IMG/VR virus record: IMGVR_UViG_643692022_000007
Strand: one strand, 5' to 3'
Length of the DNA: 38,874 nt
Source: a virus
Lineage: Duplodnaviria > Heunggongvirae > Uroviricota > Caudoviricetes
Every line of letters starts with the position of its first letter. Position 1 is the stretch's first letter. Positions 11,200 through 11,950 of the stretch are shown here, piece by piece. Below the pieces are notes generated by a model. It worked only from the letters and a program-made list of their open reading frames with translations. It did not search any database and was not told where the DNA came from. Both the position numbers and the translations under genes were made by a program.

Positions 11200-11700
11200 T
11201 TATTCGCTCCCGTCATCGCAATGTTCCTTCCGGTGGAAGTAATTCCAACCGTTCCACTTCGCCAACTGGTTACCACTACCAACAGGCATACGGTTTGGAT
11301 AACCGGACTTACATTTAGCGGCTTTTGCTCTGTCCATTGCAGACAGTTTGACGAGTCTCTCTTTCCCGTATCTGGCAGTGGTTATAAGTTTTGCAGACGC
11401 TTCCAGCGCATAATCCGGAGCAATGCGGCAGGCAAGGTTGAAAATGACGGCATTGATAGCGTTATTTGATAAACCGTGTTCATCGCCAGGATCTGGAGCG
11501 ACATCTGCATCAGCGAAAATGTAGCCAACGTTGATACCTGGTGACGCATCACCGCCAAGCCACTCAGCCATCATCATTTCAAGGTCGTTGACGCCATCTT
11601 CCATGGACTGCGGTTCGACATCGGTTAACGTGGCATTTGATGCCACACCGAGCTTACGTAATGCCGCAAGAACTAAATCACCCTTCGTTGTCAGGTTCAT
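11200..11700 (-). CDS. gp4: Tail adaptor protein, P22 gp4-like (start taken at an internal ATG downstream of the repeat)
   Basis: From [33 protein letters not shown]... the product is 166 aa, matching remembered P22 gp4 in sequence and length. The longer track ORF (to 11811) adds an (SQ)n leader that is probably another frame of the repeat, not part of gp4. Confidence 0.8.
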
Positions 11701-11950
11701 CTGCTGCCGCCTTAGGTTTTCGACCAGGCTTTTTACGCTGTTTTTCTTCTGGCTCTGGCTCTGGCTCTGGCTCTGGCTCTGGCTCTGGCTCTGGCTCTGG
11801 CTCTGCAACATCCTTCAGAAGATCATCAGGATGTGCAAACCAGCCAGCATCCAGATATTCCTGAAGCTCTTCGGCTTTCACGATTTCAAAGTCGTATCCA
11901 ACGCCTTTCCACTTCTTCATGTCTCCATGACGAAAGATCATGTGTGTCAT
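11678..11950 (-). CDS. Small acidic protein with an (EP)9 dipeptide repeat and basic C-terminus, between coat and gp4
   Basis: ATG at 11950 preceded by GGAGA. Product about 90 aa: [49 protein letters not shown](EP)9[23 protein letters not shown]. Overlaps the gp4 start by about 23 nt. Confidence 0.45.
11749..11806. repeat. Perfect hexanucleotide tandem repeat (GGCTCT)n, about 9.5 units
   Basis: Read directly: ggctctggctctggctct... across 11749-11806. It encodes EP, SQ or RA repeats depending on minus-strand frame. Confidence 0.95.

Follow-up and report, generated by a model that had tools for sequence, protein, structure and literature searches.

A coding hexanucleotide repeat of variable copy number between the coat and gp4 genes of a P22-like phage, and its probable role as a permissive Glu-Pro linker in a small late protein

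The DNA analysed here is a stretch of 38,874 nucleotides from a virus of the Caudoviricetes (IMG/VR record IMGVR_UViG_643692022_000007), which we refer to as the window. On its minus strand, a small open reading frame (ORF) carrying a perfect hexanucleotide repeat lies between the gene for a P22-type major coat protein and a homologue of P22 gene 4. The features of this junction are as follows.

11995 to 13290, minus strand: gene for the P22-type major coat protein, 431 aa (Pfam P22_CoatProtein, E 1.9e-164)
11962 to 11989, minus strand: hairpin resembling an intrinsic terminator, with a T-run (pattern scan and fold; 9-bp stem, TTCG loop)
11957 to 11960, minus strand: Shine-Dalgarno sequence GGAG, 6 nt upstream of ATG 11950, invariant in seven aligned phages
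11678 to 11950, minus strand: small ORF of 90 aa plus stop codon (ATG at 11950, stop at 11680 to 11678), short form of phrog_1175
11807 to 11950, minus strand: N-terminal domain, residues 1 to 48, predicted to be folded (AlphaFold2 model, alignments, codon-position polymorphism)
11748 to 11805, minus strand: perfect hexanucleotide repeat of 58 nt, 9.67 copies (Tandem Repeats Finder (TRF), exact-run scan and sequence)
11681 to 11743, minus strand: basic C-terminal tail of 21 residues with KKPGRKPK (sequence; conserved across genera)
11200 to 11700, minus strand: gp4 homologue (head-tail adaptor / packaged-DNA stabilisation protein), 166 aa (Pfam P22_Tail-4, phrog_637)

Assignment of the flanking genes by Pfam confirmed that the repeat is located between the coat and gp4 genes, as had been proposed in an earlier interpretation made without database searches (hereafter the sequence-only reading). 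The same reading had placed the ORF behind a terminator-like hairpin downstream of coat, and both the pattern scan and folding recovered this structure at 11989-11962. The hairpin, AGAGGGAGC-TTCG-GCTCCCTTT at 11989-11968, directly follows the coat stop codon and precedes a T-run; its GC-rich stem folds with a minimum free energy of -18.9 kcal/mol (z = -2.5). The combination that defines a Rho-independent terminator, i.e. a GC-rich stem-loop followed by a U-tract, is hence predicted from sequence and folding for this putative post-coat terminator. A GC-rich hairpin with a T-run follows the coat stop codon in every relative inspected, P22 included, and stem sequences differ between these relatives, as seen for the hairpins that P22, Klebsiella and two metagenomic relatives carry at this site. 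In the P22 record, the equivalent feature is annotated as a putative stem_loop and likened to those of lambda and HK97.

At the other end of the junction, the start of gp4 could be assigned to ATG 11700, as only the first residue of the 166-aa form precedes the Pfam P22_Tail-4 match (E 8e-59). A Shine-Dalgarno-like AAGG at 11710-11713 is embedded in the codons of the small-ORF tail, which in this way carry both the ribosome-binding site and the start of gp4. Overlap between the small ORF and the gp4 start amounts to 23 nt, with the ORF ending 20 nt past the gp4 ATG. This 23-nt overlap is present in all 87 close loci, the IMG/VR part of which consists of the best 80 of 231 matches. An exception is found in a more distant Klebsiella locus (L090), where a gap of 18 nt separates the small ORF from gp4 and the tail has diverged.

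Read along the coding strand, the repeat is (GAGCCA)n; its plus-strand unit is TCTGGC. TRF reported a period of 6, 9.7 copies, 100% matches and a score of 116 for 11748-11805, and an exact lag-6 scan of the window returned the same 58-nt perfect run, the next longest run being 16 nt. An array with 52 lag-6 matches in succession cannot have arisen by chance. The sequence-only reading had described a perfect hexamer tract at 11749 to 11806; the tract itself is confirmed, but each of its ends was off by one base, which is trivial. The locus is annotated as a repeat_region in GenBank MG197996 (phage APC_JM3.2). We found no paper on this particular locus, and a literature search with the hexamer in the six phases of one strand returned nothing on variable-number tandem repeats (VNTRs) or multilocus VNTR analysis (MLVA). 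In kind, the repeat resembles the in-frame coding hexanucleotide VNTRs of enterobacterial genomes, e.g. those used for MLVA typing, with which it shares the perfect 6-bp unit kept in frame as well as a copy number that differs between otherwise near-identical strains.

The small ORF has the properties foreseen by the sequence-only reading, that is an ATG at 11950 with a Shine-Dalgarno sequence (GGAG, 6 nt upstream) and a product of 90 aa with an (EP)9 tract and a basic tail. The protein is identical to RefSeq WP_024256483.1 from a prophage of E. coli P393-F10. Its sequence starts with MTHMIF and runs to KDVA, followed by (EP)9, which corresponds to codons 50-67 at 11750-11803, and by 23 further residues. 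For the N-domain, AlphaFold2 predicts a beta-hairpin and two helices, the second of them short, with a pLDDT of ~90 in the full model and of 87.6 when modelled alone; alignments reveal invariant residues at G9, W14, G16, Y19, D20, G36, W37, H40, P41 and D42. With a pLDDT of ~50, the EP linker and the tail are predicted to be disordered. The protein is strongly acidic: its net charge is -12 at nine units and approximately -(3+n) in general, which amounts to about -4 to -32 over the range of 1 to 29 units.

Two frames of the minus strand are open through the repeat, namely the small ORF, in which the repeat encodes (EP)n, and an upstream extension of gp4, in which it encodes (SQ)n. Database records are divided between them. 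The small ORF is called in phages APC_JM3.2 and Bas106 and, by PGAP, in the listed E. coli genomes, where it is accompanied by the 166-aa gp4; an (SQ)n-extended gp4 is called in the GenBank/RefSeq records of phages IME10, Dewey and Louie. Three lines of comparative evidence favour EP as the coding frame, in agreement with the sequence-only reading. First, the product aligns with phrog_1175 over its full length (E 1e-33; residues 1-88 paired with positions 1-72 of the 72-position profile). Second, we retrieved 372 database proteins in which N-domain, linker and tail follow one another in the EP frame. Third, polymorphism within the N-domain among 29 haplotypes has the signature of this frame: polymorphic sites are distributed 8/2/16 over the three codon positions, and changes comprise 16 synonymous, 12 non-synonymous and no stop substitutions. 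The corresponding synonymous/non-synonymous/stop counts are 3/24/1 and 4/18/6 for the other two sense frames and 7/20/1, 12/15/1 and 1/24/3 for the antisense frames. The EP frame is thus conserved among relatives, lack of which would have spoken against the sequence-only reading.

Could the repeat nevertheless encode an N-terminal (SQ)n extension of gp4, initiated at ATG 11811? The gp4 frame is open from this position, yielding an ORF of 203 aa in the window, and it is likewise open in most close relatives; moreover, the CCA to TCA changes in phage Louie are synonymous in the SQ frame, and three records annotate the extended form, as mentioned. However, the ATG of the SQ frame is replaced by a Thr codon in two loci (L045, L046) and by a Leu codon in a third (L052), and L078 has a stop codon that leaves a single open codon ahead of the gp4 ATG; in this last locus, a GAGCTA unit, which reads EL in the small ORF, also introduces TAG into the SQ frame. 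In P22, the SQ frame is interrupted by a TAA two codons upstream of the gp4 ATG. The array units point in the same direction: 35 of them read GAACCA instead of GAGCCA, and three loci consist almost wholly of GAACCA. Both hexamers encode EP, whereas GAACCA converts SQ to NQ in the gp4 frame. In addition, AAGGA abuts ATG 11811 with essentially no spacer. The position of the P22_Tail-4 match and the PGAP gene calls also argue against the extension, and the former bears out the proposal of the sequence-only reading that (SQ)n lies upstream of the true gp4 start. A genuine (SQ)n extension is accordingly very improbable, and we consider it an annotation artefact. Likewise, a location of the repeat inside the conserved P22_Tail-4 coding sequence of gp4 was rejected, as neither P22 nor several relatives have an intact frame upstream of gp4, this being either lost or interrupted there.

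Over the 46 nt that separate the repeat from the gp4 ATG, the synonymous/non-synonymous/stop counts are 2/5/0 and 2/4/1, by which the two frames are not separated; here, assignment of the frame relies on continuity with the N-domain and on the family-wide conservation of the tail. As a separate observation, the gp4 ribosome-binding site and start codon overlap the tail, which confounds any conclusion from its conservation.

Two ORFs on the plus strand are also open across the repeat in the window, one of 216 aa with (LW)n at 11531-12181 and one of 75 aa with (GS)n. Most close relatives also have an open (LW)n frame, with a median length of 214 aa. That one of these represents a real gene has virtually no credibility: both lie on the strand opposite to the coat, gp4 and small-ORF genes, the N-domain polymorphism quoted above speaks against each antisense frame when compared with 16/12/0 in the sense frame, and at least one relative has only 35 aa of the open (LW)n stretch left.

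The small ORF belongs to a known family, typified by P22 orf69 and gene 6 of phage epsilon34. P22 orf69 (NP_059631) matches phrog_1175 with E 4.5e-31, and BLASTP aligns it with the small ORF at E 2e-8. It is encoded at 6135-6344, in the slot between coat and gene 4, and ends 17 nt inside gene 4. Both proteins share an EL.EY..GW..HP..LL core in the N-domain and a GRKPKA tail, and both genes follow the same type of post-coat hairpin. They differ in the linker, which in orf69 comprises seven non-repetitive residues (PVEADDV) and in the window ORF a perfect (EP)9 array. Position and 3' end are characteristic of the family. The gene resides between a P22-type coat gene and a gene 4 homologue on the same strand in the window, P22, epsilon34 and divergent members, and the window ORF overlaps the gene 4 start and has the ..G[RP]KPKA.. 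tail. The gene order portal, scaffold, coat, small ORF, gp4 and gp10 is retained in divergent Klebsiella and metagenomic members with 38-51% identity, and the coat-to-gp4 position of the small gene is kept across the Enterobacterales. When the ORF was used as tblastn query against the phage collection, only eight close relatives were retrieved and only the first 49 residues matched, because the low-complexity filter masks the repeat.

The product of epsilon34 gene 6 (YP_002533465) is encoded at the same coat-to-gene 4 position and represents a long form of this protein: its 186 aa comprise the N-domain, an additional WDGH domain (Pfam PF25311), a short linker and RKKPGPKPKAESDADKD. A further long form, from a prophage of E. 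coli SJC33, consists of the N-domain, the WDGH domain (E 1.5e-39), (EP)5 and a tail exactly matching that of the window ORF. The window ORF has no WDGH match in Pfam and does not qualify for the long-form family phrog_3769, to which its N-domain alone aligns over positions 1-44 with E 7e-4. Comparison of the two forms therefore identifies the window ORF as a short-form member whose linker is an expanded EP array. Length differences within this family have been reported before: gene 6 homologues differ significantly in length, the versions in P22 and Scho1 have substantial internal deletions, and P22 orf69, which corresponds to gene 6 in the epsilon34 numbering and is without an assigned role, is described as non-essential in the laboratory (PMC2629481). 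Our literature searches on orf69 and P22 retrieved only unrelated ORF69s, the epsilon34 paper alone dealt with the small ORF between coat and gene 4, and a search for WDGH returned nothing relevant. EP tracts of two to five units and a KKPG[RP]KPKA tail occur family-wide in Klebsiella, Pectobacterium, Enterobacter, Citrobacter, Leclercia and Obesumbacterium, which suggests that the EP linker is ancestral to this subfamily and was expanded in E. coli prophages. What is new is the allele series described below, rather than a new kind of element.

As anticipated in the sequence-only reading, the length of the EP tract varies between isolates while the frame is maintained. Alignment of the junction across P22-like phages and prophages, which that reading had called for, gave unit counts of 9, 8, 8, 6, 5, 5 and 2 in seven close phages, and of 2 to 29 in 87 loci from IMG/VR, phages and E. 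coli, with IMG/VR represented by the best 80 of 231 matches to a nine-unit query, so that long arrays are over-represented in the IMG/VR set. Complete E. coli genomes carry 1 unit (EC38), 9 units (P393-F10), 19 units (NRZ105822) and 29 units (ECONIH6). The most common protein length in the database clusters is 80 aa, equivalent to four units. Every allele is in frame in the 90 loci examined. All observed changes involve whole multiples of 6 nt and therefore leave intact both the small ORF and the 23 nt that it shares with gp4.

Copy number is also a rapidly changing character. When loci were grouped by identical flanks (400 + 400 bp), 7 of the 12 flank haplotypes with more than one member carried different unit counts, e.g. 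9/10/13, 9/11/15 or 4/11. The window itself, with nine units, has flanks identical to those of L022 with 12 units, and in pairs with zero to four flank differences the unit count differs in 79% of cases. Copy number thus changes much faster than point substitutions accumulate. Long arrays, up to 29 units, are perfectly pure. The most likely source of copy-number change would be replication slippage or recombination between units.

Three interpretations of this variability, apart from the preferred one, were considered. An on/off phase-variable contingency locus was rejected in view of the 6-nt unit, the maintenance of frame in 90 of 90 loci and the location of the repeat inside an ORF rather than in a promoter. 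The second is adaptive tuning, in which copy number would be under diversifying selection and act via the length or charge of the linker on the activity of the protein, e.g. on the reach or auto-inhibition of its basic tail, or via the length of a translated leader that sets gp4 output. The very fast turnover of copy number on identical flanks, the purity of the long arrays, the retention of EP identity by two codon pairs (GAGCCA and GAACCA), the conservation of an acidic, Pro-rich linker across genera and the overlap of the small ORF with the gp4 start are all compatible with such a device. However, purity is equally expected from recent slippage, every variant is in frame and there is consequently no on/off outcome, and counts are spread from 1 to 29 with no preferred discrete states beyond the mode of ~4 units among database clusters. 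Moreover, P22 functions without an EP tract, and the gene is dispensable there. We therefore regard adaptive tuning as unlikely.

Third, the repeat might act as nucleic acid, either as a purine-rich unstructured leader RNA or as a DNA spacer upstream of gp4, with the EP peptide being incidental. Compared with shuffled controls, the RNA of the repeat shows less structure (z = +2.55), and the repeat is situated between the terminator-like hairpin and the gp4 start, at 48 to 105 nt from the latter. This option appears most unlikely, as hundreds of proteins from different genera have the EP frame connecting a conserved N-domain, confidently predicted to be folded, with a likewise conserved tail, no indel disrupts the frame at any of the 90 loci, and Rfam yielded no match: the search over 11500-12200 returned only a sub-threshold chance hit to a snoRNA.

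The interpretation that we prefer, with a probability of roughly 80% on the basis of the comparative sequence data, is that the repeat represents a hexanucleotide VNTR within the coding sequence of a genuine small late gene that is translated and belongs, as a short form, to the P22 orf69/epsilon34 gene 6 family, where it would specify a permissive EP linker. In this ORF, (GAGCCA)n encodes an acidic Glu-Pro linker between the 48-aa N-domain, predicted to be folded, and the basic Lys/Pro-rich tail, and this linker may form a disordered or extended tether, spanning ~6 to 180 Angstrom for 1 to 29 units if polyproline-II-like. The range of 1 to 29 units, the lack of a repeat in P22 and the dispensability of the gene there suggest that the linker serves as a permissive spacer rather than as a ruler or an on/off switch, and we infer that the length variation would be neutral. 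As to the protein, our guess, made with low confidence, is that it may act as a non-essential accessory factor of the head module, and it is an equally tentative guess that the basic tail may tether nucleic acid or an acidic partner. Again with low confidence, we suppose that translation of the ORF probably also brings ribosomes to the start of gp4 beyond the post-coat hairpin; coupling of the ORF to gp4 would not be universal, since the Klebsiella relative lacks the overlap and has a divergent tail.

Some known proteins resemble the small-ORF product in architecture or composition. In E. coli TonB, an (EP)n followed by a (KP)n segment is regarded as an extended spacer between two functional ends. 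The window ORF likewise has a Glu-Pro run followed by a Lys/Pro-rich basic stretch and produces weak compositional hits to TonB over residues 47-83, but it differs by having neither a membrane anchor nor the TonB C-terminal domain. What the two share is composition and, probably, physical behaviour. Homology with TonB was rejected, as the NCBIfam score of 17 bits compares with a cutoff of 315 bits and involves the EP/KP stretch only; NCBIfam contains no family for either the WDGH-free short form or the long form. Trypanosoma procyclin (EP/PARP) shares (EP)n dipeptide repeats only. It is a eukaryotic GPI-anchored surface coat protein, whereas the match of the window ORF is purely of low complexity, and homology was rejected here as well (Pfam Trypan_PARP, 22.9 bits versus a cutoff of 100 bits). 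A positional analogue is lambda gpFI. The gene for this small accessory protein directly follows that for the major capsid protein and precedes the head-completion genes; the protein is composed of two parts with a flexible acidic linker and assists DNA packaging while not being strictly essential. The analogy between gpFI and the window ORF is one of gene position and general architecture only.

Searches with the N-domain provided few leads to function. Foldseek comparison of the model with the PDB gave a best E of 3.1, the structure search of BFVD returned only uncharacterised small phage proteins, and neither epsilon34 gp6 nor the profile of the N-domain nor a nuclease-like protein had a significant sequence match in the PDB; no fold or sequence match in PDB, BFVD or profile searches assigned a function. 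Beyond the family itself, an exhaustive N-domain search led to proteins containing GIY-YIG, HNH and NUMOD3 domains, in which a module of ~37 aa (kiWINkdG..K.Ik.eELQ.YLddGW.kG) is repeated four to six times. Hits of phmmer to these proteins have E values of 8e-7 to 9e-4 over multiple stretches, and hhalign pairs the N-domain with the nuclease-associated module at 96.6% probability (E 5e-10) over 19 columns only, corresponding to the last strand and helix. The module does not correspond to a Pfam family. The tail was also considered as a candidate AT-hook, a motif with an R-G-R-P core, which was rejected for the window ORF: KKPGRKPK gave no hit to Pfam AT_hook even at E <= 10. Two distant homologues (P0133 and P0145, with KRRGRPPK) score 14.0 and 13.5 bits against AT_hook, the cutoff being 17.4, and a homologue search seeded with P0133 retrieved only two proteins. 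Judged from these sequence matches, the shared 19-residue motif and the AT-hook-like tails of distant homologues hint weakly at nucleic-acid binding. A bolder scenario may be derived, in which the family would consist of small late proteins that bind nucleic acid. The N-domain would be a single copy of the module found in tandem in the DNA-binding regions of homing-endonuclease-like GIY-YIG/HNH proteins, the tail an AT-hook-like minor-groove anchor, and the acidic, slippage-prone EP spacer a heritable and rapidly adjustable rheostat that, through reach or electrostatic auto-inhibition of the tail, tunes packaging/head completion or gp4 translation. We deem this scenario quite unlikely.

Taken together, our data suggest that a small late gene of a known family carries an in-frame repeat whose copy number changes readily, probably with little consequence for the phage. 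The findings do not overturn current understanding and are in line with fairly ordinary repeat slippage. A dramatic role is unlikely, given that P22 can dispense with the gene and that the length variants all keep the frame. They do settle the correct gene model of the coat-gp4 junction by comparative evidence. Public annotation of this junction is inconsistent, in that either the small ORF is called or gp4 is extended by an artefactual (SQ)n stretch, and PGAP flags alleles with long repeats as incomplete pseudogenes. The locus could also serve as a fast-evolving typing marker for P22-like prophages. Finally, it offers a natural linker-length series of 1 to 29 EP units in near-identical backgrounds, in a gene that has been an orphan of the very well studied P22 head module since 1991; together with the WDGH long form and the short form of P22, this allele series represents ready-made material for addressing the function of the gene.

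The small open reading frame (ORF) between coat and gp4 is missing from the annotation of all three phage records IME10, Dewey and Louie, in each of which an upstream ATG serves as the gp4 start and the EP repeat is read in the gp4 frame:

L002 (NC_019501, IME10), 1750-2355: gp4 as annotated, with (SQ)n leader
L003 (Dewey), 1750-2343: gp4 as annotated, with (SQ)n leader
L004 (Louie), 1750-2337: gp4 as annotated, with (SQ)n leader

In Escherichia coli ECONIH6 (L089, 711-956), the allele is intact, encoding 130 aa with 29 repeat units, and is labelled by PGAP as an 'incomplete, missing C-terminus' pseudogene. 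The WDGH-form gene of E. coli SJC33 (908-1144 as annotated) is likewise intact (203 aa) and carries the same PGAP label. Both the extended gp4 starts in the three phages and the pseudogene labels in the two prophages are annotation artefacts. The SJC33 gene represents the long form of the family:

L088 (SJC33), 710-1321: N-domain, Pfam WDGH domain, (EP)5 linker and basic tail

Since this protein carries an (EP)5 linker followed by a tail identical to that of the short form, the EP array is placed between the preceding part and the tail in both architectures. For the WDGH domain, the searches turned up neither a relative with a solved structure nor any literature. P0020, a 93-aa E. coli protein, carries a 13-residue in-frame duplication where the N-domain ends, which is a second type of in-frame length change within the small-ORF gene.

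The N-domain of the orf69 family shares a 19-residue strand-plus-helix motif with a ~37-aa module (kiWINkdG..K.Ik.eELQ.YLddGW.kG) that is covered by no Pfam family. This module occurs in four to six tandem copies in endonuclease-like proteins of the GIY-YIG, HNH and NUMOD3-containing kinds (P0130, P0132, P0134-P0137, P0139-P0141, P0143 and P0144). An HNH endonuclease gene lies immediately upstream of coat, on the opposite strand, in two relatives:

L003 (Dewey), 1-203, minus strand: HNH endonuclease gene
L004 (Louie), 1-209, minus strand: HNH endonuclease gene

It occupies the site where the scaffolding gene ends in other relatives and may represent a homing-endonuclease insertion into the head module.

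Elsewhere in the window, two imperfect 12-bp tandem repeats (TGTGCGGCTTCA / TCATGTGCGGCT) fall within a 315-aa ORF (27751-28698, minus strand) that adjoins a 458-aa ORF:

28160-28191: 2.7 copies, TRF score 50
28226-28271: 3.8 copies, TRF score 50

These repeats may be replication-origin iterons inside a putative lambda-O-like initiator gene.

Finally, a GC-rich hairpin with U-tract directly follows the coat stop codon in the window and its relatives:

Window, 11962-11989, minus strand
L007 (P22), 6102-6119
L090, about 3464-3485
L092, about 3464-3483
L093, about 1320-1347

Its position is conserved across P22-like phages while the stem sequences differ, and a UUCG-type tetraloop is frequent. 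Such a pattern would fit an RNA element under selection, either an attenuator or an mRNA 3'-end stabiliser, that sets the highly expressed coat gene apart from the low-copy head-completion genes.
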